Shown here one piece after another: positions 14,958-63,923 of a DNA stretch of 64,000 bases. Each line of letters begins with the position of its first letter. The stretch's first letter is position 1. The translations under genes and the position numbers were made by a program. The notes below the pieces were generated by a model. That model made no database searches. It was not told where the DNA came from and worked only from the letters and a program-made list of their open reading frames with translations. Origin of the DNA: an uncultured Planctomycetales bacterium (GTDB lineage Bacteria; Omnitrophota; Gorgyraeia; Zapsychrales; Fredricksoniimonadaceae); contig CAZOXU010000009.1 of assembly GCA_964583975.1 (NCBI GenBank), positions 3,195 through 67,194 on the forward strand, written 5' to 3'.

Positions 14958-14960
14958 AAG

Positions 14961-24499: not shown

Positions 24500-24548
24500 A
24501 GTTTGATTCTATTGGATTTTATCTTTATAGTAGATAAATAGATGAAGA

Positions 24549-24622: not shown

Positions 24623-24637
24623 TTTAGGAGGAAGGTT

Positions 24638-43919: not shown

Positions 43920-43942
43920 GTTGGTAATATTAGGATGCGGTC

Positions 43943-44476: not shown

Positions 44477-44484
44477 GAATTCCT

Positions 44485-45099
44485 ATGCGGCTACCATTTT
44501 TATTTTTAGCATTATTAATATTTAGTACTGTATCGGTTCACGCCAAGGAGGAAGGTATGAAGCAGGATCAATTACAGAAAGCTACATTTGCAGGAGGATG
44601 CTTTTGGTGTATGCAACCTTTTTTTGATCGTCTTAAAGGAGTGAAGCAAAGTTTAGTAGGTTACACAGGCGGACATACCAATAATCCCACTTACGAAGAG
44701 GTTTCTATGGGCGATACGGGGCATGCAGAGGCCATTGAAATTACCTTTGATCCCAAAGAGACAAGCTATGAGCAATTGTTAAATATTTATTGGCGCAATA
44801 TTGATCCAACGGTTGAGAATGCCCAATTTGTAGATCATGGCACACAGTATCGAAGTGCTATTTTTTATCACAGTGAGGAGCAGAAGCGTTTAGCAGAGTT
44901 TTCTAAAAAAGAATTGGCTGATTCGGGTCGATTTGATAAACCAATCGTCACCCCCATTGTGCCTGCGACTAAATTTTATCCTGCCGAAGATTATCATCAG
45001 AAATACTATCAAAAAAGTCCTATCAGGTACAAGATGTATCATGACAATTCAGGCCGTGATGAGTTCTTGGAACATATTTGGGGTAAGCAGTCCCACTAG
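44485..45099 (+). CDS. msrA: Peptide-methionine (S)-S-oxide reductase MsrA, periplasmic (signal peptide)
   Basis: GCFWC active-site motif. 204 aa. Confidence 0.85.
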   Translation: MRLPFLFLALLIFSTVSVHAKEEGMKQDQLQKATFAGGCFWCMQPFFDRLKGVKQSLVGYTGGHTNNPTYEEVSMGDTGHAEAIEITFDPKETSYEQLLNIYWRNIDPTVENAQFVDHGTQYRSAIFYHSEEQKRLAEFSKKELADSGRFDKPIVTPIVPATKFYPAEDYHQKYYQKSPIRYKMYHDNSGRDEFLEHIWGKQSH

Positions 45100-45166: not shown

Positions 45167-45781
45167 ATGTTAGCGTTCAAGAAATTCTTATTCGTTGTTT
45201 CTTTTGCAGCCTTAGTTTTATTAGCCCAGTCATCTCAGGCTCAGGCTTCTTCATGGTCTGTTAATATTGGTGTAGGAGATCATCATCACAGGCAATATCA
45301 AAGCCATTGCCGTGTTTTACCACATGGATATCATCCTGTGAGAGGTTTTGGAGGACATCGTTATTACTATTATGATGGAGTTTATTATCGAGGATATCCA
45401 GGAAATTATGTGCTCATTTCAGCTCCTGTAGGAGTAGTTGTTTCGTCGATCCCTTGGGGGCATCATAAGGTATGGATTGGTGGTAGATATTATTACGAGT
45501 ACGAAGGAACCTATTATCAGCCTATTGCAGGCGGCTATCAAGTTGTTCAGTCCCCAGTAGTTGTCCAATCTCCGGTGCTGGTCAGCAGCCCTACGACAGC
45601 CCCATCAAATGTTGTGACCGTTGATGGACAGGAAGACCTAACAGTTAATGTGCCTAATTCGCAAGGCGGCTTTACACCTGTTATACTTAAAAGGTCAGGA
45701 GAAGGTTTTATTGGACCCCAAGGAGAATTTTATACGCAATTTCCAAAGATAGCTCAACTGAAGGTTATGTATGGAAAATAA
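45167..45781 (+). CDS. Secreted Tyr/Gly-rich repeat protein of unknown function
   Basis: Signal peptide. Repeated YYYYDGVYYRGYPGNY and GGRYYYEYEGTYYQP segments. Confidence 0.4.
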   Translation: MLAFKKFLFVVSFAALVLLAQSSQAQASSWSVNIGVGDHHHRQYQSHCRVLPHGYHPVRGFGGHRYYYYDGVYYRGYPGNYVLISAPVGVVVSSIPWGHHKVWIGGRYYYEYEGTYYQPIAGGYQVVQSPVVVQSPVLVSSPTTAPSNVVTVDGQEDLTVNVPNSQGGFTPVILKRSGEGFIGPQGEFYTQFPKIAQLKVMYGK

Positions 45782-46081: not shown

Positions 46082-46224
46082 TGCTGTAAAAACATTAATT
46101 CTTAATAAAACCTGCCTTGTTTAGCAATTCCTAAAATATTTCATTTTGGGGTTGCGTATATATACATTCACATTTAATATAAAAATACATTTTTGATAAA
46201 ATTTCCTAACTAGGGAGGAGTTTC

Positions 46225-47880
46225 TTGAAAAGACCATTCAGGTTTCTGTGTATTTTATCGATGGTTTTTGCTGTTTTTCTGCACCAATCCCCATTGCATG
46301 CTTTAGACGCTGCAATGCCTCTCGAATCGAAGAAAATATCTTTAGACTACAAGAATGCTGAATTGACCGATGTGCTCAAAGCCATGTCTTATTCTTACAA
46401 TCTTAATATCGTGGTGGCTAAGGACATTACCGGCAAAGTATCAGCCCAATTAAAAGACGTGACCGCTGAAGAAGCTTTAAATGCTATTTTGACCGGCAGC
46501 AGTTATGCCTATATGCGTAAAGGTGACATTATTTACGTCCAGTCTAAAGAAGAGATGGATCTGGTGACGGAAACCCTCGTTTTGAATTATATTCCCCTCG
46601 AACAAGCCCAAACGTTATTAAGTGGTGCTATCACTCGATTAAAAGCTAACATTCAGGTCAATAAAGATGCCAATGCTTTGGTGGTGACAACCAATCCAGG
46701 AGATTTAGAAAAATTAAAAGTGATTTTGCAGGGCATTGACGTTCCTCCGATTCAGGTCTTAATTGAAGCCCAGATCGTCGATATTAATAGATCTGATATT
46801 CAACAGATTGATAGCGCTGTTAGTCTGATTTATTCAGCTAATCAAGTGGGAGGGACGTTCTCCAAATTTAGTCCCAACGTTACAGCAGGATCTGCCTCTA
46901 ATACAGCAGCGACAAGCACATCTAACACTTCATCTTCATCCACATCTTCCACTTCAGGAGATCAGGGTGTGTTTTCTTTTGCTAATAACAATTATTCTCA
47001 AATGTCTATTACAGCCTTAGTTAATCAACATAAAGCACGTGTTATCGCTTCTCCGTCGATTGCAACTCTTAATGGCCATGAAGCTAGCATTGTGATTGGG
47101 GAGAAATATCCTGTTGTGACCTCAACGTCTTCGGCTGGAGGGACGGGTGGCAGCATTGTCAATCAAACTACCACATCTTATATCGATATTGGAACCAAGC
47201 TTAAAGTCACTCCTCGCGTTTCACCAGATGGTTGGATTACTATGAAAATTGAACCCGAAGTTTCTTCCGTGTTAGGTGTAACGTCCAATGGAAATCCTAA
47301 CATTGCGACCCGTTCAGCCAATACAGAGGTTCGGGTGAGAGATAATGAAACGATCGTGATAGGGGGCCTAAAAAGTAAAAGTGATTTGCGAGATAAAAAT
47401 GGTATTCCAGGCTTAAAAGATATCCCCATTCTTGGAGCTTTATTTCAAAGTCATAATAAATCCTTGGTTGACGGGGAATTGACTGTTTTAATTACACCAC
47501 ATGTCATCCCTATGGTCCATCCAGAGAAAGCAAAAAATCCTCCACCAAGGAAAGTTATGACAGGTGAAGATAGCGTACTGGTCCATAACATCTTGAATTA
47601 TATTGATACTCTCGAGGCAGATAGGTCTAAGGATCGGGCTAAAAATCTTTACCTAAGCGGGGAACAAATTAAAGCTTACAGAATGCTTTTGCAGGAATTT
47701 CCTGCTTCGGGTAAAGGAGATTATTGCCTTTATAGAATTGCTTTGAAATATGCTAAGGACTTTGGTAATTGCAAGGCAGCTAAAGAAACTTTTGCGGAGT
47801 TACAGGAGTTGTTTCCCACAAGTTCTTTTATTCCTGTGACAGAATCTTTGGTCGATGCTTGTACAGCTGTGCAGCTTTAA
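46225..47880 (+). CDS. pilQ: Type IV pilus secretin PilQ-like (TTG start)
   Basis: Signal peptide, N-terminal secretin-N domains, an S/T-rich linker, and a C-terminal secretin domain (ATLNGHEASIVIGEKYPV..., GGLKSK...IPILGALF). Confidence 0.8.
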   Translation: MKRPFRFLCILSMVFAVFLHQSPLHALDAAMPLESKKISLDYKNAELTDVLKAMSYSYNLNIVVAKDITGKVSAQLKDVTAEEALNAILTGSSYAYMRKGDIIYVQSKEEMDLVTETLVLNYIPLEQAQTLLSGAITRLKANIQVNKDANALVVTTNPGDLEKLKVILQGIDVPPIQVLIEAQIVDINRSDIQQIDSAVSLIYSANQVGGTFSKFSPNVTAGSASNTAATSTSNTSSSSTSSTSGDQGVFSFANNNYSQMSITALVNQHKARVIASPSIATLNGHEASIVIGEKYPVVTSTSSAGGTGGSIVNQTTTSYIDIGTKLKVTPRVSPDGWITMKIEPEVSSVLGVTSNGNPNIATRSANTEVRVRDNETIVIGGLKSKSDLRDKNGIPGLKDIPILGALFQSHNKSLVDGELTVLITPHVIPMVHPEKAKNPPPRKVMTGEDSVLVHNILNYIDTLEADRSKDRAKNLYLSGEQIKAYRMLLQEFPASGKGDYCLYRIALKYAKDFGNCKAAKETFAELQELFPTSSFIPVTESLVDACTAVQL

Positions 47881-47919
47881 GTAATGACTCTATAACGTAG
47901 AAACCCTAGAAAGATTTTT

Positions 47920-48297
47920 ATGACCGATCAAGTAAAGAAAAAGGTGCTGGTTGTTGATGATGATCCCATGATTGTGACTTTAATGGTTAAAACGTTAGAG
48001 TCTCTAGGTTTTGAAGTGCTAAAAGGGACTAATGGGGTCGAAGCATTAGCGATAGTTAAACAAACAATTCCTGATTTAATCATCCTTGATCAAATGATGC
48101 CTAAAATGGATGGTATAAAAGCCTGCGCTCTGCTCAAAGCAGATAAACGATATTTAAATATCCCGATCATTATGTTTACAGCCAGCGCCGATGAAGCTGA
48201 TAAGCAACTTAGTAAGCAGATGGGCGCCAATGAGTATTGTAATAAGCCTTTAAATGTGGCTGAGCTAAAACAAAAAATCGAACTATTGCTTAAATAA
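47920..48297 (+). CDS. Single-domain response regulator (PilH/PilG-like) within the pilus operon
   Basis: VVDDDP...IILDQMMPKMDG receiver motifs. Confidence 0.7.
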   Translation: MTDQVKKKVLVVDDDPMIVTLMVKTLESLGFEVLKGTNGVEALAIVKQTIPDLIILDQMMPKMDGIKACALLKADKRYLNIPIIMFTASADEADKQLSKQMGANEYCNKPLNVAELKQKIELLLK

Positions 48298-48308
48298 ACA
48301 AAATCGTT

Positions 48309-49934
48309 ATGAGTAATTACGTTAAAAAATCGATGGGAGAGTTATTGTTGGAAAAAGGCTACATCTCCGGGGCCCAATGGGAAGAGGTGCGTAGCGAACA
48401 ACAAAAAACCGGAGAATCGATTTTTAGAATATTGCCAAGACTAGGATTTATTACACAAGAAACCATGGTTGATTTTATTGCCGAACAAAGCGGGGTTACT
48501 CGACTTGATTTAGCTAGTATGATCATTGACCCTAAAACTGTTGAACTAGTACCTGAAGAGATGGCCCGCAAGCATCTGGTCATTCCTGTTTTAAAAATAG
48601 GAGGTTCTTTAACATGTGCCATGGTCGATGTTTTTAACATTTATATGCAAGATGAGTTAGCAGCAAAAACAGGTTTAACGATCGATCCGGCTATTGCTAC
48701 TGAGAATGAAATTACCAAAGCCATTAATCAGTTATACACAGTTAAAGGTGATGTGCAGGATATCATCAAATCTTTTGATGAAGCCAAATCTGAGAATAAT
48801 CAGACTGATGATGCTGAAGTTCATCGTTTGCAGGTGACTGGCGGGCAAGACGATGCTCCCGTGGTTAAATTTGTCAATTTGATGATTGTTCAGGCCGTTT
48901 CGGATGGTGCTTCCGATATTCATATTGAACCCGAAGAAAATACATTAGCCATCCGATTTCGTGTTGATGGGGTTTTACGTAAACAGACAGCTCCACCTAA
49001 GCAATTTCAAGCTGCGCTGATTTCTCGTATTAAGATTTTGGCTAAACTCGACATTTCTGAAACGCGTAAACCGCAAGATGGACGCATTCAAATTAAAATG
49101 GAAAATAAACGTGTCGACATTCGTGTGTCTTGTTTGCCGACGGTTTATGGGGAAAATCTTGTCTTAAGACTTTTGGATACCAGTAATATTCTCATCGGTC
49201 TTGAACAAATTGGTTTTGAGAAAGAAATTTTAGAGAAATATAAAAGTCTTTTGTTTAGACCTAATGGGATTGTGTTGGTGACGGGTCCTACAGGAAGTGG
49301 AAAAACAACAACCCTGTATTCATCTTTAAGTACCATCAATGATCCGAGCAAGTCCATTGTCACGATTGAAGATCCGGTGGAATACCGTTTACCTGGGATT
49401 CGCCAAACCCAGGTCAATCCAAAGGTTGATTTGACCTTTGCTAATGGATTGCGTTCTATTCTTAGACAAGATCCCAATGTAATCATGGTCGGGGAAATTC
49501 GTGACGTAGATACAGCGCAAATTGCCATTCAAGCTGCGTTAACAGGACACCTTGTATTAGCAACGCTGCATACTAATAATGCGGCCGGTGCTGTGACCCG
49601 TCTTTTGGATATTGGGGTAGAACCATTTTTATTGGCTTCCTCGATCATTGGAGTTTTAGCTCAACGTTTGGTGCGTTTAAAGTGTAAAGACTGTGCCGGT
49701 AAAGGTTGTAAAACTTGCGGTGAAACAGGCTATAAGGGCCGAACCAGCATTTTTGAATTACTTGTTTTTAATGAACAAATACGCGCTTTGACTTTAAAGA
49801 AAGCTTCGGCAGATGAAATTCACCGTTTGGCGGTTTCCGAAGGAATGAAAAGTATGCGCGATAATGGTATGGATAAGGTGGCTAAAGGACTTACAACCCA
49901 GGAAGAAATTATTAGGGTTACCCAATTAGAATAA
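48309..49934 (+). CDS. pilB: Type IV pilus assembly ATPase PilB (GspE family)
   Basis: N-terminal GSPII domain, Walker A GPTGSGKTTT, a tetracysteine motif (CKDCAGKGCKTC) and Asp/His boxes. Confidence 0.85.
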   Translation: MSNYVKKSMGELLLEKGYISGAQWEEVRSEQQKTGESIFRILPRLGFITQETMVDFIAEQSGVTRLDLASMIIDPKTVELVPEEMARKHLVIPVLKIGGSLTCAMVDVFNIYMQDELAAKTGLTIDPAIATENEITKAINQLYTVKGDVQDIIKSFDEAKSENNQTDDAEVHRLQVTGGQDDAPVVKFVNLMIVQAVSDGASDIHIEPEENTLAIRFRVDGVLRKQTAPPKQFQAALISRIKILAKLDISETRKPQDGRIQIKMENKRVDIRVSCLPTVYGENLVLRLLDTSNILIGLEQIGFEKEILEKYKSLLFRPNGIVLVTGPTGSGKTTTLYSSLSTINDPSKSIVTIEDPVEYRLPGIRQTQVNPKVDLTFANGLRSILRQDPNVIMVGEIRDVDTAQIAIQAALTGHLVLATLHTNNAAGAVTRLLDIGVEPFLLASSIIGVLAQRLVRLKCKDCAGKGCKTCGETGYKGRTSIFELLVFNEQIRALTLKKASADEIHRLAVSEGMKSMRDNGMDKVAKGLTTQEEIIRVTQLE

Positions 49935-49941
49935 TTTAACC

Positions 49942-51201
49942 ATGAGCAAATATTCTTATAAAGCCAGAAATAATGAAGGTCAGTCGGTCACAGGGATATT
50001 GGAAGCGACTTCTGAGCAAGAGGCTCTTTTTCAGTTAGGAAAGATGCAGTACACTCCTATTTCTATTGTACTTAACGAAACAGCTGCAGCATCTGGTAAA
50101 GAGCAGTCTAAGGGTTTTTGGGATTTTTCTTTTAGTTCTTTTGGTACTGAAACAAAGGTCAGCGTTAAAGATGTTATGGCGTTTTGTTCTAATCTTTCAA
50201 GTATGACGTCTGCCGGGGTACCGTTGTTGGGGGCGATCACAACCATTGCCGAGCAATTTCAAAATCCAACGATGACTAAGACTTTACGTAAGGTTGCTCA
50301 ATTAGTCTCGCAGGGATCTTCCTTCTCAGAGGCCTTGGCCATTTTCCCAAAAGTTTTTTCACCTTTCTTTGTCAGCATGGTGAAGGTAGGGGAAATGTCA
50401 GGTACCTTGGAAGAAACACTCAACGCTTTAAGTGTTTATTTGGAGAAACAAGAGCGTCTAAGACAAACAGTCCGAGGTATCTTAATTTATCCTTCTATTT
50501 TATTAGTGGTGGGAACAGCAGTCGTGGTTTTGATCGTAGTCTTTTTAATGCCTAAATTTGTGGATATCTTTACTAAAGCCGGTGTAGAGCTTCCTATTCC
50601 TACCAAAATGCTTTATGCTTTAAGTCTTTTTTTAAAGATGTATTGGATATGGACTGTTCTTACGATAGCTGCTTTGGTTTTTGGGATTAGAATGTCTTTT
50701 ATGAAAGAAAAAACGCGGGCACTGTGGGACCGTTTATTTATAAAATTGCCTTTGGTTGGAAGTCTTTTGATCAAAGTTCAGGTGGCCCGTTTTTGTAGAA
50801 CTTTAGGGATCATGGTGAATTCAGGGGTTTCTATTTTGGTCGCTTTGAACATGGTTAGACAAGTTTTAAGTAATGTTGTCTTTGTTGAAATTTTAAAAGA
50901 AGTTTATGATAGTGTGGAAAAAGGCGAAGGGATCCACAAGCCATTAATTCCTCGCAAAGAGATCCCCAAAGATGTGACCTATATGATCTCTGTAGGTGAA
51001 CAATCTGGTAATATTGGTCAAATGCTGAACAAAATAGCTGATTTTTATGAATCTAAGGTGGAATTTGAAGTTAAAGATCTTGTTACTTTGATTGAACCAA
51101 TATTTATTTGTATTTTAGGTGCTGTAGTTGGGGTTATTATGGCTTCCATGATTTTACCAATGTTTGACATGATTAAAACGATCGAAATGAAACATCATTA
51201 A
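49942..51201 (+). CDS. pilC: Type IV pilus inner-membrane platform protein PilC (GspF family)
   Basis: Two GspF repeats. About 419 aa with 3-4 TM. Confidence 0.8.
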   Translation: MSKYSYKARNNEGQSVTGILEATSEQEALFQLGKMQYTPISIVLNETAAASGKEQSKGFWDFSFSSFGTETKVSVKDVMAFCSNLSSMTSAGVPLLGAITTIAEQFQNPTMTKTLRKVAQLVSQGSSFSEALAIFPKVFSPFFVSMVKVGEMSGTLEETLNALSVYLEKQERLRQTVRGILIYPSILLVVGTAVVVLIVVFLMPKFVDIFTKAGVELPIPTKMLYALSLFLKMYWIWTVLTIAALVFGIRMSFMKEKTRALWDRLFIKLPLVGSLLIKVQVARFCRTLGIMVNSGVSILVALNMVRQVLSNVVFVEILKEVYDSVEKGEGIHKPLIPRKEIPKDVTYMISVGEQSGNIGQMLNKIADFYESKVEFEVKDLVTLIEPIFICILGAVVGVIMASMILPMFDMIKTIEMKHH

Positions 51202-51234
51202 ACCAAGAGTTTACAAAAAACAAAAGGAGATAAA

Positions 51235-51675
51235 ATGAAAAAAGGTTTTACTATATTGGAATTGTTGGTTGTTGTGTCGGTGTTGGTTATCCTGATTGGC
51301 ATAGCCATTCCAAGATTCAAGGGTATGCAAGATGCTGCAAGGGTAGCTCAGGCCAAGGGTGAATTACAAACCATGCAGTCTGCTGTTGAAACATATTATA
51401 TGAATGTGACACCAAAGGCTTACCCAGTAAACAGTGCAACGGTGGGTGCAAGCGTGTTATCTACAGCAACGCCACAGGTTATCACCACAACTCCTCCGTA
51501 TGATCCGTTTGCGGCAGCGAATGTGGAATACAATTACAAAGTAGCAGCTGACGGTAAGTACTATGTGCTTAGTTCTGTGGGAGCAGCTGGTACTGGTACA
51601 ACGAGTATTGTCAGTGGTGGGACAGTTACGATTGCTAACAATGCTTTATGTGTAACTAATGGTGGTGGTTGTTAA
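51235..51675 (+). CDS. pilA: Type IV (major) pilin, copy 1
   Basis: Prepilin leader MKKG/FTILELLVV (G-1, F+1, E+5). C-terminal disulfide loop CVTNGGGC. Confidence 0.8.
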   Translation: MKKGFTILELLVVVSVLVILIGIAIPRFKGMQDAARVAQAKGELQTMQSAVETYYMNVTPKAYPVNSATVGASVLSTATPQVITTTPPYDPFAAANVEYNYKVAADGKYYVLSSVGAAGTGTTSIVSGGTVTIANNALCVTNGGGC

Positions 51676-51701
51676 CTTTAATATTATTAACGGAGGATAA
51701 A

Positions 51702-52142
51702 ATGAAAAAAGGTTTTACTATATTGGAATTGTTGGTTGTTGTATCGGTGTTGGTTATCCTGATTGGTATAGCCATTCCAAGATTCAAAGGTATGCAAGAT
51801 GCTGCAAGGGTAGCTCAGGCCAAGGGTGAATTACAAACCATGCAGTCTGCTGTTGAAACATATTATATGAATGTGACACCAAAGGCTTACCCAGTAAACA
51901 GTGCAACGGTGGGTGCAAGTTTGTTATCAACCGCAACACCACAGGTTATCACCACAATTCCTCCGTATGATCCGTTTGCGGCATCGAATGTGGAATACAA
52001 CTACAAGAGATCTGCAGATGGTTATTATTATGTTCTAACTTCTGTTGGAGCAAGCGGCAATGGAACAACAACAATTGTCAGTGGTGGGACAGTTACGATT
52101 AGTAATAATGCTTTATGTGTAACTAATGGCGGTGGTTGTTAA
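51702..52142 (+). CDS. pilA: Type IV (major) pilin, copy 2. Tandem near-identical paralog.
   Basis: Same leader and ~90% identical to copy 1; differences cluster in the C-terminal half. Own GGAGGA RBS. I moved the start from 51669 to the MKKGF Met. Confidence 0.8.
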   Translation: MKKGFTILELLVVVSVLVILIGIAIPRFKGMQDAARVAQAKGELQTMQSAVETYYMNVTPKAYPVNSATVGASLLSTATPQVITTIPPYDPFAASNVEYNYKRSADGYYYVLTSVGASGNGTTTIVSGGTVTISNNALCVTNGGGC

Positions 52143-52151
52143 GCAAGGACA

Positions 52152-52523
52152 ATGAAAATTAGAAAAATTTTCAAAAGCAGAGGCTTTACTCTCTTGGAAA
52201 TTGTACTTTCCACCGTTCTCATTACGATTGGTGTGACTGCAGTTGTTCGAGTTATTTCAACAGGCATTTATACAGACAATGCTAGTGAAGGGAAAATCAT
52301 CGCGTTAAATTATGCCGTACAGAAGATGGAAGACCTATTAAATACTTCTTATAGTAGTCTTTCTTCTAGTTCAGATACGCCTACCACAGGTTTTACAAGA
52401 ACTTGGACAATCACTGATAATACAAATTATAAGACGCTCAAGGTGACAGTCAGTTGGTATTATAAAAGAGTTCAAATGTCGGTTAATTTAGCGAGCTATC
52501 TTGCCAATGTTACTACTTCCTAA
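52152..52523 (+). CDS. Minor (pseudo)pilin, PilV/PilE-like
   Basis: Leader ...KSRG/FTLLEIVL. Confidence 0.65.
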   Translation: MKIRKIFKSRGFTLLEIVLSTVLITIGVTAVVRVISTGIYTDNASEGKIIALNYAVQKMEDLLNTSYSSLSSSSDTPTTGFTRTWTITDNTNYKTLKVTVSWYYKRVQMSVNLASYLANVTTS

Positions 52524-54738
52524 TCGAATAAGAAACAAAGTAGGCTTTTCCTTGGTTGAAATTGTGGTGGTTATGGGTATGCTGGTTTTTTTAACAGTGT
52601 CCATAACCAAGGTTTTTACAGGGACCTTCCGAGCTTTTGGTTTTAGCCAAGACCGCGCTCAAGCAACTAATCGCATCTCCCTAGCATTTCAGAAAATGGT
52701 AGATGAACTCCAGCAGTCAGATGGAATTAAGTCCTGTGATGGTTTAAGTGTTACATTCTCCTTGGCAGGTTCTTTTTATAAATATCAAGTAAGCTCAAAT
52801 CAATTACAAAGAATAGATCCTAACAATAGAAAAGAAATATTAGTTAACTATGTGAAAACTCCTGGTTCTGGCGGGGCATATTCTTTGCCATGGTTGTGTT
52901 CAGGAGGAACGGTAAGGATTGATTTGACTACCTATAATCCTGCTTTTAGTTCAACCTTGACAACTAATAATACATCACATTTTGTAACTACTGTTACACC
53001 TAGAGGAATTCCTTATGGTTTAGTGTATTGGTGGAAGTTAAATGAAGGCACAGATACAACACTTTATGATTTAGGTGGCAGATACCCAAGTGGGAATATG
53101 GATGGTATTCCAGCATATTTAACGGGTGATTCTGGGGGACCCGCTTGGACTACGGGGATAGCAAATGGGGCTTTAACTTTTACAGCATCTAATAATGACT
53201 ATCTTTATTTGAATGAACCTATTGGGGGTTATGGAGAGCTTAATGGGCATAATTCTTGGACTGTAAGTTTTTGGTTTAAGGCGACTACTCTTAAAGCATA
53301 TGCTAGTGGGCAATCTCCAGGAATGTTCATTGCTTCTAGAGGAGCGCCAGCGGGAATATTTATATCCACAGATAATTGGATATATCGGGGTGCAGATGAT
53401 GCGGATAATACAGTCGCAACAACGACAAGTGTGGGCTGTTGGTATCATTTGGCTATGAGCTTTGATGCTTCATCTGGTAGTGTGATGGTTTATAAGAATG
53501 GCGATCTTTTAGGTACCATCACCCATCAGGATTCATTGGAAAATAGTGGGTATTATTTCGATACCATTGGAACTGATTATACGAACTATTTTAATGGAGT
53601 TATGGATGATATACGTTTTTATAATTATGTTTTAAGTAATGATGAGATAGCCAAGCTATCTCGATACTTGCCCTATTATAGTTCTTCGGCCCTTGCTATT
53701 GCTGATATTTATACAGATGCTAATAATTGCGGAGCTATCGGCACCGTCTGTGCAGGGGGTACTTCATGCTATAGCGGAAAATGTTGTACAACAGGTTACA
53801 CCAATTGCAGCACTACTGGTGGACTCTGTGGAACTTGCTATTCGATGGCTAGCAGCTCCACTAATTGTGGTAATTGTGGCAACGCTTGTGCGGGAGGTAA
53901 AAGTTGTTCAGATGGGTATTGCTGTACTACAGGTTTGACCAATTGTTTCACGGGAGTAAATGCTTGTCAAAATTTGACCAATGATTCTAGTAATTGTGGA
54001 TCTTGCGGGAATGCTTGTGGGGTAGGAACTCCAACATGTTGTTCTTCTTCTTGTGTGAATACTACAACTAATTCAAGTAACTGTGGATCTTGTGGGAATG
54101 CTTGTACTTCAGGAACAACGCCTGCCTGTTGTAGCTCATCGTGTGTTGACGAATATGTGAATACAAGTAATTGTGGTGCATGTGGTACAACTTGTGGTGG
54201 GGGGACTCCATATTGTTGCCATGGATCGTGTAGTGCTCTGGCTCCTACAGGTACTGTCTGTACAGTAAATGGAGAATGTTGTAGTAACGTATGTTCATGT
54301 TTTACCTCTGGAACTAAGGTTTTACTGATTAATGGCAAAAAGATTGCCATTGAAAAACTTAAGGTGGGAGACGTATTGTTGGGTTCAAATAGAACTCATA
54401 ATAAAGTCATTCGACTAGACGTAAGACCTAAAGAAGTAAGAAAAATTTATTCTTTCAATGATGGGCGTTATTTTGTGACGGAAAATCATCCCTTTATGAC
54501 CAAAGAAGGATGGAAGGCCCTTAATCCTCAATTGGCCCAATTAGAACAAAGCCAGATTAAGATAGGTCAACTTAATATTGGAGATGAGATTGTAACCCAG
54601 AAAGGTTTTGTTAAACTTAAAAAGATTAAATTTAAAACTATAAATACAGTTGTGTACAATCCTCAATTAGATGGCAGTCATGATTATTATGCAGATGGTT
54701 TTTTAGTGCACAATAAAGGAGCTAAACATTGCACATAA
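52501..54738 (+). CDS. Large pilin-like protein: prepilin N-terminus, LamG/ConA-like domain, tandem Cys-rich modules, and a C-terminal Hint (intein/hedgehog-type) domain
   Basis: Leader ...NKVG/FSLVEIVVV. LamG signature ...DDIRFYNYVLSNDEIAKL. At least four repeats of NCGxCGNAC..G....CC..SC. Hint begins CFTSGTKVLLINGK..., has block-B-like VTENHPF, and ends GFLVHN plus 6 aa. Confidence 0.7.
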   Translation: MPMLLLPNRIRNKVGFSLVEIVVVMGMLVFLTVSITKVFTGTFRAFGFSQDRAQATNRISLAFQKMVDELQQSDGIKSCDGLSVTFSLAGSFYKYQVSSNQLQRIDPNNRKEILVNYVKTPGSGGAYSLPWLCSGGTVRIDLTTYNPAFSSTLTTNNTSHFVTTVTPRGIPYGLVYWWKLNEGTDTTLYDLGGRYPSGNMDGIPAYLTGDSGGPAWTTGIANGALTFTASNNDYLYLNEPIGGYGELNGHNSWTVSFWFKATTLKAYASGQSPGMFIASRGAPAGIFISTDNWIYRGADDADNTVATTTSVGCWYHLAMSFDASSGSVMVYKNGDLLGTITHQDSLENSGYYFDTIGTDYTNYFNGVMDDIRFYNYVLSNDEIAKLSRYLPYYSSSALAIADIYTDANNCGAIGTVCAGGTSCYSGKCCTTGYTNCSTTGGLCGTCYSMASSSTNCGNCGNACAGGKSCSDGYCCTTGLTNCFTGVNACQNLTNDSSNCGSCGNACGVGTPTCCSSSCVNTTTNSSNCGSCGNACTSGTTPACCSSSCVDEYVNTSNCGACGTTCGGGTPYCCHGSCSALAPTGTVCTVNGECCSNVCSCFTSGTKVLLINGKKIAIEKLKVGDVLLGSNRTHNKVIRLDVRPKEVRKIYSFNDGRYFVTENHPFMTKEGWKALNPQLAQLEQSQIKIGQLNIGDEIVTQKGFVKLKKIKFKTINTVVYNPQLDGSHDYYADGFLVHNKGAKHCT

Positions 54739-54753
54739 TATTTTAATATTAGT

Positions 54754-55947
54754 ATGAAGAAAATGGCTATTTTGCATAAAAATGGAATACTTTTAGTTTC
54801 GCTATCAATCATGATGACACTCATGACCTTGGCCATGGTTTTTATTCAAAGGGTTTTAGGGACAGCTAAAACAGCTCAGGCTGAGGTGGATCGAATACAA
54901 GCTTTATATGCAGCTGAAGCAGGCTTACAAAAAGCTATTTATTATCTTAACTATACAGCTCCAGATAGTACAATAGGAGGGTCATATAGAATTGGTACTG
55001 CTTCTAGTACGGCCTGTCCTTCAACAGGAGGATCAGCAGGTTTGTCAGAAACATTAACCATATCTACTGGCAATACAGCGACCTATACTATGTGCATTGA
55101 AAACTCAGGTTACAATGTTCAAATTACTTCAACAGGCACGGTCGTTAGCGGTATTAATGGAAATGTGAGCCGAACAGTTCAAGCTAAAACATCACAACCA
55201 CTTCTTGCAACAACCAGTGGGGGAGTCAATGCTGCCAATTTATTTGCACGTTGGGATTTGGCTTTGATAGTTCCTGGTTTAGGAACAACAGATGTTAGTG
55301 GTAATGGTTATACAGCATGGTTTGGGGGTAGTCCTACATCGTCTACAGCAGCATTAAATGATGGGGTAACACATAATACTTTAACTTTTGATTCAGCTGC
55401 GTATGCTTTGACCTACACACCAGCGATAAAAGGTTCATTTACAGTTACTGGATGGATCAAGCCAACAAATGCTTGCCTGGCAGGTGGAGCTGCAATTGGT
55501 TTTTTTGGAAATTCCTATGCAGCAAGTTCATTGGGGATGGGGTATCATCTAGTTTTTGATAATACAGTATTAGCTTTAAAGATTGAAGCCTCCAATGGAA
55601 CAACTTATTCTTGTTCAAAAAGTGTTGCAGCATGGAACAATACAACATGGTATCACTTTGCAGCAGTGTATGATAATACAATTCAGTATGGAACAATGTA
55701 TCTTAATGGTGTAGCTGGTACATCGGCGGCTATGAAGAATTCTTATCGCCATTCTTGGTATTATTATCTTGGTGTAGGTGTTTTTTGGGGTAATGATCCA
55801 GATACGCCATATACCAATAAGTTTTCTGGTTCTTTAGCAGATCTTCGAATTTATGATCGAGCTTTAAATGCGAATGAGATTGCACAAATCTATAATGGTT
55901 ATGGTTCATCTATCAAAATGTTAAAAGGATCGTTTAAGGAATTATAA
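54754..55947 (+). CDS. PilX-like minor pilin with a LamG/ConA-like lectin domain (putative tip adhesin)
   Basis: N-terminal hydrophobic pilin-like helix (HKNG/ILLVS...). C-terminal LamG signature SLADLRIYDRALNANEIAQIYNG. Confidence 0.6.
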   Translation: MKKMAILHKNGILLVSLSIMMTLMTLAMVFIQRVLGTAKTAQAEVDRIQALYAAEAGLQKAIYYLNYTAPDSTIGGSYRIGTASSTACPSTGGSAGLSETLTISTGNTATYTMCIENSGYNVQITSTGTVVSGINGNVSRTVQAKTSQPLLATTSGGVNAANLFARWDLALIVPGLGTTDVSGNGYTAWFGGSPTSSTAALNDGVTHNTLTFDSAAYALTYTPAIKGSFTVTGWIKPTNACLAGGAAIGFFGNSYAASSLGMGYHLVFDNTVLALKIEASNGTTYSCSKSVAAWNNTTWYHFAAVYDNTIQYGTMYLNGVAGTSAAMKNSYRHSWYYYLGVGVFWGNDPDTPYTNKFSGSLADLRIYDRALNANEIAQIYNGYGSSIKMLKGSFKEL

Positions 55948-55948
55948 T

Positions 55949-57625
55949 ATGGCAGTGTCGATTAATAATAGATCGGTCATAGGGATTGACATTGATGCTA
56001 CTAGCATCAATGTGGTGCAGCGAATCTCTGCCCAAGGTCAAGTTAGGATTACAAAACTTGTCATTGAGAAAATCCTTTTTGAACAAAATAAAACTAAAGA
56101 AGCTGTCATTGTTGAGGCGCTTGCTAGGGCCGTTGCGAAGTTTAAGATTCAGAATTCAGATGTCATTTGTACCATATGCGACCAGAAATTTATCTTAGAT
56201 CACATCACCTTGCCTGTGATGCCCCCCGAAGAGCTTGCTCAGGCTGTTAAATTACAAGCCAGCAATTCTCAACACTACCCCATCGATAATCCTGTTTATG
56301 ATTTTGAAGTTCAAGGACGGATCATGGATAAGGGGGTTGAGAAAAACAATGTAAAATTAGCTGCTCTGGCGAAAATTTCTTTAGACAATTTTATTAATCG
56401 ATTCAAATTGCCTGTCAATGATGTTACCGGACAATTAAGAAAATTATTACGTGTTGATAGCTTGATGGGTTTAAACATTGCTCGTGTGATTCCTCTTTCT
56501 TTAGCAATCGGTAATATTGTTCAGTATTCCAAGAATTCAAAAGTGGTTGCTGTGTTCTATATGGGATCATCTAATGCTGAGTTGAATATCTATCGAGAAA
56601 TGAAGTTAGAATCTTCTAGAAAGATTAATGTTAATGGCAGTGATTTTACCAAGGCTTTAACCGGCGCTTTGTTTTCTGACAGCGGAAAGACAGAATTAAA
56701 CATCGCTGAAGCTGAGAATCTCAAAAAAGAATATGGTATTCCAACTGCTGGAGATAATTTCTTAATTAGAGGAAAGATTACAGCTAATCAGGCGCTGTCA
56801 TTGCTGCGACCTCGAGTAGAACAGTTGAGTCGGGAAATTAGCCGCTCTTTTGATTATTATTATGATCGAAATCAGGTTAAGAAAATAGACGAGATCGTAT
56901 TAATGGGTGAGGCTGCCCATCTTAAGAGATTAAATGAAGTTTTAAATGCTGAACTTGGAATTCCTGTGGTCGTGGGCAATCCTTTAGAAGGGTTGAATGT
57001 TTCTGATGAGGCGGCTTCTCAAATGAATGCAGAGAACATCCAATCTCTTATACCTGCACTGGGCGCATCTTTAGCAGATCCATCCACTGGGATTAATCTT
57101 CTTCCTGCAGATTTAAGGAATGTTGAGAAAAAATTCAAAGAGCGAATTTGGATGGTTTTGACAGGTTTGGCCATTGTAGGCATATCCCTAGCTTTTTGTT
57201 TGGTGTTATTTATGCAATGCCTAATCACTGGGCAGCAGCTTGCTAAATCCAAGAAAGCATATCAAGATACGACCATAAAGATTAAAGATTTGAAAAATAG
57301 ACTTTATCTCGAACGTGATATTAAACATCGTATGAAAATAGGCGCATTTTTAATGAATTTAAGCCATTTGCCTAGCAGGGTGAGCTTAACGCAGTTAAAA
57401 ATGGAAAATGGTAATTTGGAATTATTTGGAATGGTCGGTGCGCAGAGCGCTGATCCTAAAGTGATATTGGATGAATTAGTTCGGGAAATTAGCAAGAATG
57501 CTTTTTATGATGTCAAAGTGGCATCTGTGAAAGGTGATGAATCTAAGGATGAATTCTTAGAGTTTGTCATTAAGGGGAATTACAAAATGGAGAAATACAC
57601 GCATGAAGATCCAGTTCAAAATTGA
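55949..57625 (+). CDS. PilM-PilN fusion protein (actin-like ATPase PilM fused to the bitopic PilN)
   Basis: PilM-like region (residues ~1-375). Then the PilN hallmark INLLPADLR followed by a TM helix and a periplasmic coiled/ferredoxin-like part. Confidence 0.7.
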   Translation: MAVSINNRSVIGIDIDATSINVVQRISAQGQVRITKLVIEKILFEQNKTKEAVIVEALARAVAKFKIQNSDVICTICDQKFILDHITLPVMPPEELAQAVKLQASNSQHYPIDNPVYDFEVQGRIMDKGVEKNNVKLAALAKISLDNFINRFKLPVNDVTGQLRKLLRVDSLMGLNIARVIPLSLAIGNIVQYSKNSKVVAVFYMGSSNAELNIYREMKLESSRKINVNGSDFTKALTGALFSDSGKTELNIAEAENLKKEYGIPTAGDNFLIRGKITANQALSLLRPRVEQLSREISRSFDYYYDRNQVKKIDEIVLMGEAAHLKRLNEVLNAELGIPVVVGNPLEGLNVSDEAASQMNAENIQSLIPALGASLADPSTGINLLPADLRNVEKKFKERIWMVLTGLAIVGISLAFCLVLFMQCLITGQQLAKSKKAYQDTTIKIKDLKNRLYLERDIKHRMKIGAFLMNLSHLPSRVSLTQLKMENGNLELFGMVGAQSADPKVILDELVREISKNAFYDVKVASVKGDESKDEFLEFVIKGNYKMEKYTHEDPVQN

Positions 57626-58121
57626 GGAGTATTTTCCATACCTTATTGTGCTAGGGTTTTTGTTTTTTGTTTTGGTGATTGTTTTTGTTAGCAAACCCAT
57701 GCTCAAAAATATTAAACAAAATAAGGAACAGTCTCAAGAATATATCAAAGAGGCAGCATCTTTAAACAAATTGTCACAGGAAGGTCAAAACAAGTCTGCT
57801 ATTAATTTAATTACTGAACAACAAGGCAGAGAGCTCCAAAGTAAGATCAAGAACATTGCTGTTAAAAACAAGATTTACTTAAGTTTCAAGAATTTGGGTG
57901 TGGTGGGTGAGGTTCAGATGACCTCAGATTTATATAAATTGTTAATGTTCGAAGGTAAGGCTTCAGGAAACTATAAGAATTTTGCTACTTTTTTAACTGA
58001 AATTAGAAACATTTCAGAAGGATTTATTGACGTAGAGAAAATAGCGATTATTGGTGATTCGACAGCGACTTCCAATATTACAGCACAGATAACATTGTCC
58101 ATTTTTATAGCAAACACATGA
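57603..58121 (+). CDS. PilO-like pilus assembly protein (TM plus coiled coil)
   Basis: Position and architecture. I set the start at the MKIQF Met. Confidence 0.5.
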   Translation: MKIQFKIEEYFPYLIVLGFLFFVLVIVFVSKPMLKNIKQNKEQSQEYIKEAASLNKLSQEGQNKSAINLITEQQGRELQSKIKNIAVKNKIYLSFKNLGVVGEVQMTSDLYKLLMFEGKASGNYKNFATFLTEIRNISEGFIDVEKIAIIGDSTATSNITAQITLSIFIANT

Positions 58122-58684
58122 TAAAGATAAACAAAACCCTCATTGTCTATATTGTTTTGATCGTTATTTTTGTTGGTGGTGTGGTGTCTATTTTTTCAAA
58201 TTCTGGTTATAAAAGTGCTCGGGTAACGCCTCCGGGGGCAGATAGAGAATTAAGAGATTTAATGTCAGTTCAGGAGGATGAATTAGATGTTTCATCTAAG
58301 GGGAGTACCAGAAATCCTTTTGTCATCTCCTATGTTAAAGAAGAAAGTGGTTTTAAATTCTTAGGAATATTCTGGGGTTCTGAAACTCCCAGTGTAATTA
58401 TTAATAATAAAGTTTATGGTCTGGGAGATGCGGTTGATGGGATGAAAATTACCGAGATTAAAGATGGAGAGCTTGTCTTAACGGACGAGTCTGGTGCGCA
58501 AAAGATTTTTTCATTGAAAGAGAATGCTCCTGTAACTGAACCTAAGCTTGAGGATAATGCTACTGCACAAGCTGATCAAAAGAATCCTAATCGATTACCA
58601 TTAAATAAAAGAAAACCTAATCAATTGCCTAGGTCTTTAAATCCAGCTGATTTTGTTCCTGCGAATGAATTAGCACCTAAGTAA
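58118..58684 (+). CDS. PilP-like pilus assembly protein (N-terminal TM/anchor plus beta domain)
   Basis: Position after the pilMNO-like genes. Membrane anchor. Low sequence specificity. Confidence 0.4.
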   Translation: MIKINKTLIVYIVLIVIFVGGVVSIFSNSGYKSARVTPPGADRELRDLMSVQEDELDVSSKGSTRNPFVISYVKEESGFKFLGIFWGSETPSVIINNKVYGLGDAVDGMKITEIKDGELVLTDESGAQKIFSLKENAPVTEPKLEDNATAQADQKNPNRLPLNKRKPNQLPRSLNPADFVPANELAPK

Positions 58685-58699
58685 TAATCATAAAATTCT

Positions 58700-59149
58700 A
58701 TGAGAAATAGTTTAGTTTTTATCTGCGTCTTTTTTTTGTTGTTACCAAGTTTAGTTTATGCCAAGAGCCAAAGAGTTCATTTAAGTACGGTTGAAATCGA
58801 ACGGTTAGAGAAATCCAAGCAAGTGCTAGCAGAGGTGGATGAAAAATCGTTGAAACAATCGATCGCAGAGCTAGAACAAGCTGCTAATCCCAGAGTCGCT
58901 TTACTAATTAAAGAAGCTATGGCCAAGACCTATGCTGATATCGTAGTTGAACAAAAAGTGGTAGGCTTAAGCAAAAAGAGATGGCTGTATAGTATGGTGG
59001 CCCTCAATATGGCGTATTTACAGTTTGAAGGCAGTAAAGATTCTGCCGGCAAAACTTCTAATCTTAATAAACTCATTCGTTATAAATTAAAGAAATATCT
59101 TCCTGCTAATATATTTGACCAACCAGGGTTTCATAGTTCCTTAGGCTAA
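58700..59149 (+). CDS. Secreted protein of unknown function, last gene of the pilus operon
   Basis: Signal peptide, ~149 aa, helical. Confidence 0.35.
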   Translation: MRNSLVFICVFFLLLPSLVYAKSQRVHLSTVEIERLEKSKQVLAEVDEKSLKQSIAELEQAANPRVALLIKEAMAKTYADIVVEQKVVGLSKKRWLYSMVALNMAYLQFEGSKDSAGKTSNLNKLIRYKLKKYLPANIFDQPGFHSSLG

Positions 59150-59154
59150 AATTA

Positions 59155-59214
59155 GATCCTTCGGCTACGCCTCAGGATGACAGAAGTAACAAAAATAGGG
59201 AGCTGTCCCTAATT
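59155..59214. repeat. GC-rich intergenic repeat element, copy C, plus a terminator-like hairpin between convergent genes
   Basis: ATCCT-TCGGCTACGCCTC-AGGAT stem-loop, with base pairs covarying relative to copy B. AGGGAGCTGTCCCT hairpin; on the minus strand it is followed by ATTTTTGTT. Confidence 0.5.
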
Positions 59215-60699
59215 TCCAATTAAAGGGGAAGTCTGCAGAGCTTCTAGGAAAACGTCGACAATGTCTTGGTCGATTTCATTTTTCATAGTGCGCAGAATAT
59301 GCATGGCCTCGAGTTTGGTTTTCTTGGCACGGTAAGGGCGTTCAGTGGTAAGGGCATCATAGACATCGGCTACGGTTAGAATACGCACCAGGGGAGAAAT
59401 TTCTTCAGCTTTTAATCTGTCCGGATAACCAGTACCATCTAGTTTCTCATGGTGATGTCGGATAATATCGCATAAAGGCTGTAGCGAATGGACAGGTTTG
59501 ATAATGCTTTCGCCAATTTCAGGATGACGCCGCATAATAATCCATTCCTCAGGGTTTAACTCGCCTTCTTTACGTAGAATTTCATCAGGAATGCCAATTT
59601 TCCCTAAATCATGAAGTTTAGCTGCATCACGCAGGGTGTTTAAATCCTCAGTATCAAGCCCTAGTTTTTTACCAATTAAAGTGACATAATCGGCTACACG
59701 ATCAAGGTGTCCTCGAGAATATCTGTCTTTTGCATCAACAGCTAAAGCCAAAGCCGAAATTGTTTCGAAATAGGTTTTTTCAATATCGTTGTTAAGTTTG
59801 GAGTTCTCCAAAGCAACTGCTGTTTGGGAAGCAAGATTAAAAACTAGATTGATATCATCTTTGGAAAAATCTTCATGATTACCTTCAGCTTTTGTAATGG
59901 TTAAAATGCCATTGGCCTTATCACGATAGACCAAGGGAACGCAAAGGATGGTTTCACCAAAGAGTTTAGAGAGTTGAGGGTTATTTAAGTCTTGTAAGAA
60001 TATTCCAGAGACCGTGGTGGGTTGTTTCTTTTCTAAAGTTTTTAAGAAAGGAGAACCTTGAAAGAGTTTAATGTGTAGCGGGTCATGAATTTGAGGGTCA
60101 TAATCGCTGCCGTAAACGGTATTAATGACAAGGTCTGTTTTCCGATCATTTAAAAGCATAAGTGTAGAAACTTTGCCATTAAGAGCATTGGTCATGGTCT
60201 CAAGAATGAGATTGAGGAAGGTGTCGATCTTTTCCATGTTGGAAATGCCTTGCCCAACTTTCTCCATCACCGATTGCAGTGTTTTTTTAGCTGCTTCTAA
60301 GCTTTTAATATTATCTTCAAGTTGATTAGTGACTACTGAAAAAGAACGGCTCAGTACCGCAATTTCGTTTTCTCCCTGATTTAGCTGTTTCATGGTTTCA
60401 GGTGAAAGGACTTTCTCCAAGGACTTACGATTTTGCTCAGTAATGCTAATGACTTTCTTAAGCATCGCGCGCATGGAGTAATAACCTACAAAAACCCCCA
60501 AAGCCATAAAAAACATGGCTAATCTAAAGTTTTCCTCGGATAAATCAATATGCCCGCTCTTATTGTGTTGAAAATAAATAAAATAGAGTAAGGCCATTGG
60601 AACGATCGAAGCCAAAAGAAAAAGAATCGTAAATTTACGAATGATAGAGGCGTCTTCGAAGGAAGAAATATAAAAGAGTTTTTTGTCGTTTTTGTTCAT
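59209..60699 (-). CDS. HD-GYP c-di-GMP phosphodiesterase with an N-terminal 2-TM sensor region and a GAF domain
   Basis: HD motif (HDLGKIGIP), HHEKLDGTGYP (GYP), GAF-like region (residues 160-300), and two N-terminal TM helices. Confidence 0.75.
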   Translation of the reverse strand: MNKNDKKLFYISSFEDASIIRKFTILFLLASIVPMALLYFIYFQHNKSGHIDLSEENFRLAMFFMALGVFVGYYSMRAMLKKVISITEQNRKSLEKVLSPETMKQLNQGENEIAVLSRSFSVVTNQLEDNIKSLEAAKKTLQSVMEKVGQGISNMEKIDTFLNLILETMTNALNGKVSTLMLLNDRKTDLVINTVYGSDYDPQIHDPLHIKLFQGSPFLKTLEKKQPTTVSGIFLQDLNNPQLSKLFGETILCVPLVYRDKANGILTITKAEGNHEDFSKDDINLVFNLASQTAVALENSKLNNDIEKTYFETISALALAVDAKDRYSRGHLDRVADYVTLIGKKLGLDTEDLNTLRDAAKLHDLGKIGIPDEILRKEGELNPEEWIIMRRHPEIGESIIKPVHSLQPLCDIIRHHHEKLDGTGYPDRLKAEEISPLVRILTVADVYDALTTERPYRAKKTKLEAMHILRTMKNEIDQDIVDVFLEALQTSPLIGN

Positions 60700-62500: not shown

Positions 62501-62509
62501 GAAATTGTT

Positions 62510-63211: not shown

Positions 63212-63214
63212 AGT

Positions 63215-63856: not shown

Positions 63857-63923
63857 TAGTTCGTATAAAAAATATATTTGACATTTGTTTTTTTTAAGCT
63901 ATAAATAGAAACCATTTTTATTT

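Follow-up and report, generated by a model that had tools for sequence, protein, structure and literature searches.

A compact type IVa-class pilus gene cluster of an uncultured Omnitrophota bacterium, with a PilM-PilN fusion, an embedded receiver and a predicted Hint/BIL domain on a minor pilin

In a 64,000-nt stretch of DNA from an uncultured Omnitrophota bacterium (the window, as this whole stretch is called below), the segment from 46225 to 59149 is, judged from its sequence, a tightly packed type IVa pilus (T4aP) gene cluster, and we consider it probable that it encodes a T4aP-class machine of this bacterium. The best placement of the system is in the T4aP class, with PilM and PilN fused in the manner of GspL and a pilin head resembling that of GspG, and the pilus would most likely serve as an organelle of adhesion and retraction. 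What lifts the locus to a moderately interesting variant is the combination of an embedded receiver with the PilM-PilN fusion and, above all, a putative bacterial intein-like (BIL) domain of the Hint type on and within pilins, which specialists in either pili or inteins would not expect.

Outside the model proteobacteria, pil or gsp genes commonly form compact clusters, so that the single-locus layout, which the original prediction had contrasted with the scattered loci of those organisms, is real but not remarkable in itself. Nor is it unusual in this phylum, since T4aP gene clusters have already been reported in almost all Omnitrophota, with a proposed function in host-cell attachment and motility (Seymour et al. 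2023, PMC10066038), and the cluster as such adds little to this near-universal occurrence. Passages of that survey give presence or absence of the pili plus their linkage to an F-type ATPase, and contain no mention of gene order, a PilMN fusion, an embedded receiver, LamG minor pilins or a Hint domain. No "symbiotic" F-type ATPase, of the kind described beside T4aP genes in many Omnitrophota, lies beside the cluster in the window, where the sole ATP-synt_ab match (25484-26374) is the C-terminal part of Rho.

Organisation and conservation of the cluster

Thirteen co-directional genes make up the cluster (LamG, laminin G-like module; MAG, metagenome-assembled genome; handles such as L001 denote related loci introduced below):

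46225-47880, plus strand: PilQ-type secretin, 551 aa; STN/N0, Secretin_N and Secretin (8e-48) domains; C-terminal helical TPR-like extension of ~105 aa
47920-48297, plus strand: stand-alone CheY-like receiver, 125 aa; Response_reg 2.9e-28; intact acceptor pocket
48309-49934, plus strand: PilB-type extension ATPase, 541 aa; T2SSE 6.8e-136; N-terminal MshEN 1.2e-18; shortened tetracysteine motif
49942-51201, plus strand: PilC/GspF platform protein, 419 aa; T2SSF 1.3e-61 in two stretches; 72% identity to an Omnitrophota MAG
51235-51675, plus strand: major pilin copy 1, 146 aa; leader MKKG, then FTILE; C-terminal CVTNGGGC disulfide loop
51702-52142, plus strand: major pilin copy 2, 146 aa; tandem duplicate of copy 1
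52152-52523, plus strand: PilV/GspI-type minor pilin, 123 aa; N_methyl; TIGR02523 2e-6 and GspI 5e-5, both below cutoffs
52501-54738, plus strand: modular J-like minor pilin, 745 aa (743 aa in the public call); LamG and predicted Hint/BIL
54754-55947, plus strand: PilX/GspK-type minor pilin, 397 aa, without Glu5; LamG module; the L001 orthologue matches PilX_N (2e-5)
55949-57625, plus strand: natural PilM-PilN fusion, 558 aa; PilM actin-like domain (1-376), INLLP (382-386), transmembrane helix, periplasmic PilN part
57603-58121, plus strand: PilO-like protein, 172 aa from 57603 or 185 aa from a TTG at 57564; orthologues match PF04350
58118-58684, plus strand: PilP/GspC-HR-like protein, 188 aa; N-terminal transmembrane helix, RNPF motif
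58700-59149, plus strand: conserved signal-peptide protein, 149 aa; 52-61% identity in L001, L068 and L069

All genes named in the original prediction were recovered in place by open reading frame (ORF) listing and profile searches, and the short or overlapping co-directional junctions that it described were borne out, neighbouring genes either overlapping or being separated by no more than 39 nt (in order, from pilQ onwards: 39, 11, 7, 33, 26, 9, -23, 15, 1, -23/-62, -4 and 15 nt). The second pilin had been started at 51669; a start at 51702, preceded by the ribosome-binding site GGAGGA and giving 146 aa, is likelier, and the PilO gene may start at 57603 instead of at the position called earlier. 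An AT-rich gap of 203 nt lies 5' of pilQ, with one weak promoter-like site:

46174-46202, plus strand: promoter-like site upstream of pilQ, TTAATA-17-TAAAAT with TG

Neither sigma-70-like sites such as this one nor terminator-like hairpin-plus-T sites (13 versus 11.8 expected) were enriched over shuffles, and the two scans therefore carry no information on internal transcription units. Matches to a sigma-54 promoter before the pilins stayed at chance level, none of them correctly placed, and Rfam families, among them the cyclic di-GMP (c-di-GMP) riboswitch, were found neither in the window nor in the pilQ leader.

In a homology scan with one genome per species, the platform protein is 72% and 53% identical to its counterparts in two Candidatus Omnitrophota MAGs, all others reaching at most 36%. 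Homologues of the 558-aa protein led to the Omnitrophota loci L067, L068 and L069 (PilMN 41-43% identical) and to two ENA contigs. With L001, in which gene order matches the window from msrB-msrA through the cluster to a convergent HD-GYP gene, these make six loci with the order of the window, so that the synteny with related lineages raised in the original prediction is indeed found. The shared Omnitrophota order runs secretin, receiver, ATPase, platform, pilin(s), variable minor pilins, PilMN, PilO, PilP-like and mostly the 149-aa gene. More distant PilMN fusions come from one MAG each of the Elusimicrobia (L070) and the Thermodesulfobacteriota (L071), in clusters that also hold an orthologous receiver. 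In these two loci the secretin comes after pilMN-pilO-pilP, as in ordinary pilMNOPQ operons, indicating that "secretin first" is an Omnitrophota rearrangement; of the gene order put forward in the original prediction, the leading position of the secretin stood and is the only part that is lineage-specific. It coincides with the C-terminal extension of the secretin (47530-47880, residues ~436-551), which is 51-62% conserved in all four Omnitrophota loci, absent from L070 and L071 and weakly matched by TPR_6 (Pfam); a fused pilotin-like function for it would be a guess.

Locus L067 has no minor pilins between its first pilin and PilMN. It carries two further major-pilin copies (L067:12673-13820) after the PilP-like gene, at the position that the 149-aa gene occupies elsewhere.

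Class assignment of the machine

Homology points to an outer-membrane PilQ, an inner-membrane platform of PilC, PilM-PilN, PilO and the PilP-like protein, a PilB-type ATPase, two nearly identical pilins with short leaders as subunits of the filament and two unlinked PilT-family retraction ATPases, the latter encoded 11.4 kb upstream of the cluster:

32630-34823, minus strand: two adjacent PilT-family retraction ATPases, 347 and 385 aa

Both of these exceed the TIGR01420 PilT/PilU cutoff (411 and 354 versus 319 bits), confirming the separate retraction motors of the original prediction, whose assignments of secretin, ATPase, platform and pilins likewise hold in profile searches and in searches against the sequences of solved structures.

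In choosing between a T4aP and a type II secretion system (T2SS), the NCBIfam equivalog scores are ambiguous, all of them lying below cutoff, and the comparison with PDB sequences is clearer. The secretin scores 215 bits with GspD and 212 bits with PilQ, both below cutoff, and its best PDB sequences are the PilQ proteins of Myxococcus xanthus, Neisseria and Vibrio cholerae. The ATPase scores 594 bits with PilB TIGR02538 (cutoff 675) and 587 bits with GspE, both again below cutoff; its residues 8-463 align with M. xanthus PilB (481 bits, full length), Thermus PilF and Geobacter PilB, whereas GspE chains in the PDB match only over the C-terminal ~285 aa, the catalytic half, and residues 1-145 match the MshEN-type c-di-GMP-binding domains of PilB, PilF and MshE. 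The fusion protein matches the PilM structures 5eou, 2ych and 3jc8_M, with no GspL among its Pfam and PDB matches, and the pilin helix is closest, in the PDB sequence comparison, to T4a pilins. We assign the locus to T4aP rather than T2SS because of the full-length PilB/PilF match, the match to PilM and not GspL, PilQ as best relative of the secretin, the T4a-like helix, the INLLP motif with PilN and PilO, and the presence of PilT.

The alternative is a T2SS-like system, in which a GspG-like pseudopilus would push LamG/Cys-rich cargo or exoproteins through the secretin, with the PilM-PilN fusion acting as GspL. It draws on several matches that weigh against our assignment: Pfam T2SSG hits both pilins at 23.9 and 21.2 bits, over its gathering cutoff of 21; their best NCBIfam equivalog is GspG TIGR01710 (51 and 48 bits; cutoff 88.85); and the platform protein scores higher with GspF than with PilC (351 versus 308 bits, both below cutoff). 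These matches to GspG, GspF and T2SSG leave some probability to a secretion-type pseudopilus. Moreover, the assignment of PilP is marginal, the top two PDB matches of the orthologue profile being PilP of M. xanthus (E 0.011) and the HR domain of GspC (E 0.027), which the PilP-like protein weakly resembles; in the direct profile search of the window proteins the sole GspC signal had an E of 0.006. GspL, too, is regarded as PilM fused to PilN (PMC10191384). Conversely, the scores of GspG, GspF, GspE and GspD are all under their equivalog cutoffs, the ATPase has an N-terminus of the MshEN/PilB type, the pilins possess a C-terminal disulfide loop, the minor pilins bear adhesin-type modules, PilT paralogues are present in the window, and the GspC PDZ domain and the GspM and GspN families were not detected. 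We therefore regard a T2SS-like system as improbable.

Other points count against the T4aP reading. No prepilin peptidase PilD (Peptidase_A24) was found among the larger window ORFs scanned up to 62500, a scan that left out 62500-64000 and a few short overlapping ORFs; PilD may be encoded elsewhere in the genome. No PilY1-type domain occurs in the cluster proteins (Pfam, NCBIfam), and there are three minor pilins, not four; the LamG modules described below may substitute for the fourth minor pilin and PilY1. With no Peptidase_A24 among the scanned ORFs, no PilY1 and no fourth minor pilin, the "complete" system of the original prediction is not borne out by the window. Transcription as one unit is suggested by gene spacing, and glycan binding by LamG, tip location and Hint activity are all predictions.

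For the T4aP class argues the comparison with the pili of M. xanthus, Thermus thermophilus and Geobacter, with which the locus shares its parts list (PilB, PilC, PilM, PilN, PilO, PilP, PilQ, PilT), the best solved relatives of its ATPase, PilM and secretin, pilins with a short leader, Phe1 and Glu5, and a retraction ATPase. It differs from them in having PilM and PilN as one polypeptide, a secretin gene that comes first and encodes no AMIN domain but a helical extension conserved at the C-terminus, an embedded receiver gene, three instead of four core minor pilins with no PilY1, a shortened Zn-finger in PilB and a pilin globular domain that matches T2SSG.

The Zn-finger of the ATPase (49680-49720, residues 459-470) reads CxxC-x4-CxxC in all Omnitrophota orthologues; its counterparts in L070 and L071 are ~27-32 residues longer.

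Pilins and adhesin modules

The two major pilins, 91% identical in DNA and identical at 135 of 146 residues in protein, both carry the class III signal MKKG/FTILE (short leader, Gly-1, Phe+1, Glu+5; the slash marks the cleavage site) and match N_methyl and TIGR02532. A conductive "e-pilin" was considered and set aside, the aromatic content of the mature pilin (11 of 142 residues, 7.7%) being judged unremarkable.

The minor pilins are more elaborate. In the 745-aa protein a pilin part (~15-180) is followed by LamG (246-384), a Cys-rich region (~400-597), the putative Hint/BIL domain (600-738) and the tail KGAKHCT, and Laminin_G_3 (Pfam) matches both this protein (6.5e-18) and the 397-aa pilin (7.3e-19). 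The three minor pilins (I-, J- and K-like) would prime assembly and sit at the tip of the pilus, where the LamG modules of the J- and K-like pilins could bind glycans, be it those of surfaces or those of host or prey cells. Modular pilins are a known adhesin design: PF13385/LamG is among the modules most commonly grafted on pilins, and a LamG module acts as lectin in PilC of Streptococcus sanguinis (PMC8179133). The 745-aa and 397-aa proteins share this design of grafted modules with S. sanguinis PilC (lectin) and PilB (vWA) (PMC8179133, PMC9934059). Such grafting extends to the relatives of the major pilin, 31 of whose best 150 homologues are much longer (at least 244 aa, with C-terminal extensions); ten of these long homologues, scanned with Pfam, contain fn3, LamG, Lcl_C or Hint modules, and further ones show Cys-rich extensions by eye.

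Directly upstream of the pilus cluster, four Omnitrophota loci encode a DsbD-like thiol-disulfide transporter that has a thioredoxin domain and, after it, msrB and msrA:

42846-45099 in the window, 3868-6110 in L001, 126-2362 in L068 and 55-1616 in L069: DsbD-msrB-msrA block

This adjacency might reflect redox care of Cys-rich pilins, or plain conserved synteny.

A Hint/BIL domain on and inside pilins

At the C-terminus of the 745-aa pilin lies the domain that sets this locus apart:

54298-54714, plus strand: predicted Hint/BIL autoprocessing domain; Cys1 at residue 600, T-x-x-H, His-Asn at 737-738

This stretch of 139 residues matches five Pfam models of the Hint clan, without reaching the gathering score of any of them, and its catalytic set (C600, T660..H663, H737-N738) is conserved across 12 family members, H and N being invariant and T and H near-invariant. 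An AF2 model built from an alignment with 11 metagenomic homologues reached a pLDDT of 92.5, and its best Foldseek match was Tetrahymena BIL2 6y75 (E 4e-9, TM 0.79), followed by mini-inteins, the Clostridium thermocellum BIL 2lwy and Hedgehog 1at0; of its 47 PDB matches at E<=1e-3 almost all are BIL domains, inteins or Hedgehog autoprocessing domains. As modelled, the terminal domain of the 745-aa pilin thus has the Hint fold, although its sequence identity to solved BILs is only ~22%.

The residue following the domain (+1) is Lys, with only six more residues behind it, and the corresponding residues of the Hint relatives are P (in two), V, A, K, N and R, and Ser in a single case. A Lys at +1 with a short tail is, at the level of the sequence, the pattern of A-type BIL domains and not that of a canonical intein (PMC7765530). 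A canonical intein was ruled out, as the +1 residue is not Cys, Ser or Thr and the hosts are variable secreted proteins, not conserved essential sites. With the A-type BIL domains (Amitai 2003, Dassa 2004), as passages of PMC7765530 describe them, and with the Tetrahymena BUBL BIL2 domain 6y75, the window domain shares the Hint fold, Cys1, T-x-x-H and His-Asn; as in the A-type domains, there is no homing endonuclease, the +1 residue is non-nucleophilic and the hosts are variable, secreted and non-conserved. It departs from the A-type domains described in those passages in that the hosts here are type IV pilins, the domain standing at the C-terminus in the window and inside the globular domain elsewhere.

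Orthologues of the 745-aa pilin in other Omnitrophota end before the Hint domain, and the J-like tip pilin would thus have gained it in this genome only. In the major-pilin homologues P0044, P0054, P0058 and P0175, a domain of this Hint family interrupts the globular domain, each time at the same site. Two of them, P0058 and P0175, are full-length prepilins, and P0175 matches N_methyl plus Hom_end_hint, the latter above the gathering cutoff. A Hint domain further occupies the middle of a pilin-fn3 protein of 1327 aa (P0064); among the best 150 homologues of the major pilin, three have a Hint domain. The family also ends two non-pilin Cys-rich secreted proteins (L073:2199-3482 and L075:6345-8462). 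Two apparently stand-alone Hint proteins of 153 aa (P0045 and P0051) were discarded, since the ORF listing shows them to be the mis-called C-termini of Cys-rich secreted proteins of 427 and 705 aa. From these occurrences we propose, tentatively and as somewhat less probable than its opposite, that a family of catalytically intact Hint/BIL domains colonised the type IV pilins of Omnitrophota.

If the domain is active, it is predicted to perform an N-S acyl shift at Cys600 and subsequently to remove itself, which would leave the pilin-LamG-Cys-rich part as a transient thioester, which might be hydrolysed, ligated or transferred, or with a new C-terminus, while cyclisation of Asn738 would also free the KGAKHCT tail. 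Once exported, pilus subunits would then undergo cutting or splicing or acquire a reactive thioester at the C-terminus, a chemistry that type IV filaments are not known to have. It could serve to attach subunits covalently to a target, to cross-link pilins with one another or to diversify subunits, and the enzyme-free conjugation by BUBL BIL domains offers a model for such uses. If true, this could mean that pilus subunits process themselves after export in uncultured nanobacteria, which are possibly predators or parasites. A full-text literature search, of incomplete coverage, found no papers that connect type IV pilins with BIL or Hint domains; the module is not among the modular-pilin architectures discussed in PMC8179133, and the searched part of the supplements to that paper contains no Hint or intein InterPro identifiers.

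The PilM-PilN fusion and the genes behind it

The 558-aa protein matches PilM_2 (4e-23, Pfam) and scores 127 bits with TIGR01175 (cutoff 133). The PilN hallmark G-I-N-L-L-P follows the PilM domain and is itself followed by a transmembrane helix, and the PilN model PF05137 matches orthologues of the fusion. GspL of the T2SS has the same topology, its cytoplasmic domain resembling PilM and the periplasmic domain fused to it resembling PilN (PMC10191384); the 558-aa protein differs from GspL in keeping PilM-family sequence and the INLLP motif of PilN. With this motif intact, the fusion could be the kind of intermediate from which GspL arose, which makes the sub-architecture in which it occurs relevant to the origin of the GspL fusion.

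PilO was assigned by way of the L001 orthologue (35% identity; PF04350 1.2e-6), and the R-N-P-F motif is conserved in the PilP-like family. The 149-aa secreted protein that ends the cluster has no Pfam, NCBIfam or PDB relative; it is better conserved (52-61%) than PilO or PilP and may be an unrecognised component of the machine.

Receiver, HD-GYP phosphodiesterase and c-di-GMP

The original prediction proposed control of the pilus by a phosphorelay and by c-di-GMP. Its placing of a receiver between secretin and motor is not incidental, as an orthologous receiver lies beside the ATPase or platform gene in all seven related loci compared (five of Omnitrophota, one of Elusimicrobia and one of Thermodesulfobacteriota). 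The orthologues share long conserved stretches, and the acceptor residues D13/D14, D57, T87 and K109 are intact in the window and in orthologues from the three phyla. Being conserved next to the motor in three phyla, the receiver is probably an integral regulatory subunit that acts by protein contact; it would probably couple an unlinked histidine kinase to PilB, PilC or PilMN through such protein-protein contact. Histidine kinases adjoin the cluster in L070, L071 and L072, and the nearest kinase in the window is 30 kb from the pilus receiver. The combination of PilM-PilN fusion, embedded orthologous receiver and MshEN-type PilB, common to Omnitrophota, Elusimicrobia and Thermodesulfobacteriota, points to a conserved and unstudied coupling of a phosphorelay to pilus extension.

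The genes for a receiver, a histidine kinase with PAS and a response regulator of the LuxR type form a unit of three at 14565-16861; its kinase, the only one found in the window, is a candidate partner of the pilus receiver at this distance of 30 kb.

The case for c-di-GMP starts from the convergent gene predicted at the 3' end of the cluster, which was recovered:

59209-60699, minus strand: membrane-anchored GAF-HD-GYP c-di-GMP phosphodiesterase; GAF and HD_5 domains

Its HD-GYP signature is intact, with HD at residue 363 and HHHEKLDGTGYP at 415-426 (HD...HHExxDGxGYP), and two N-terminal transmembrane helices were predicted by eye. A convergent GAF-HD-GYP gene is present in four of the six loci that cover the 3' end, among them L001, L069 and one ENA contig, and the ATPase narrowly passes the NCBIfam c-di-GMP-motif model NF053729 (41.3 bits; cutoff 38). 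The phosphodiesterase may lower the level of c-di-GMP, to which the MshEN domain of the ATPase could respond, which is the least secure step of the proposed mechanism. It is encoded on the opposite strand and is absent from the other two of the six loci, L067 and L068. The MshEN consensus consists of tandem RLGxx(L/V/I)(L/V/I)xxG(L/V/I)(L/V/I)xxxxLxxxLxxQ motifs. In the ATPase of the window, motif I reads SMGELLLEKGYISGAQWEEVRSEQ, the key Arg1 being replaced by Ser (S-M-G versus R-L-G), motif II is degenerate, without Arg and Gly, and MshEN Gly residues are lost in the other Omnitrophota orthologues; the Elusimicrobia and Thermodesulfobacteriota ATPases keep K-L-G or S-L-G in motif I. Control by c-di-GMP hence stays plausible from the HD-GYP gene in four of six loci but is weakened by the degenerate MshEN motif and by the absence of a riboswitch from the window.

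The same observations bear on a second alternative, a mannose-sensitive haemagglutinin (MSH)-type pilus, the extension of which would be switched on by c-di-GMP binding to an MshE-like ATPase, with the HD-GYP protein as the off switch. The MshEN domain (PF05157) and the NF053729 score fit this, as do the match of the ATPase to MshE 5htl (59.8 bits), the adjacent HD-GYP gene in four of six loci, a GGDEF protein upstream of the cluster in L070 and the order PilMN-PilO-x-secretin-AAA-TPR-ATPase in L071, which recalls the msh gene order mshIJKLMNE. The secretin, however, scores only 119 bits with MshL (cutoff 250), far under its scores with PilQ and GspD, and the Omnitrophota loci have no MshM or MshN and no AAA or TPR accessory genes. 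MshEN domains occur also in the T4aP ATPases PilB and PilF, which score higher against the window ATPase than MshE does, and the altered motif I and degenerate motif II of this ATPase, with its orthologues worse still, also weigh against this reading. An MSH-type pilus is accordingly unlikely, and a T4aP-class machine is kept as the preferred reading.

Neighbouring genes

For the proteins of the window no public names are on record. Three sizeable ORFs of the window match neither Pfam nor NCBIfam: 70-3525 (1151 aa), 3594-4142 (182 aa) and 19715-20872 on the minus strand (385 aa). A protein of 1428 aa (26769-31055) has transketolase/pyruvate dehydrogenase E1-like domains confined to its C-terminal two-thirds, leaving ~520 N-terminal residues without assignment. 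The Rho-like ORF at 25484-26374 (296 aa) covers no more of transcription terminator Rho than positions 128-411 (367 bits) and does not contain the RNA-binding part of the N-terminus, and just upstream of it lies an unannotated ORF of 219 aa (24542-25201). Finally, a DUF6515 protein is encoded within a few kb of the pilus cluster, upstream of it in the window and downstream in three loci (35-40% identity):

45167-45781 in the window, 17957-18670 in L067, 18086-18625 in L068 and 17335-17985 in L069: DUF6515 protein

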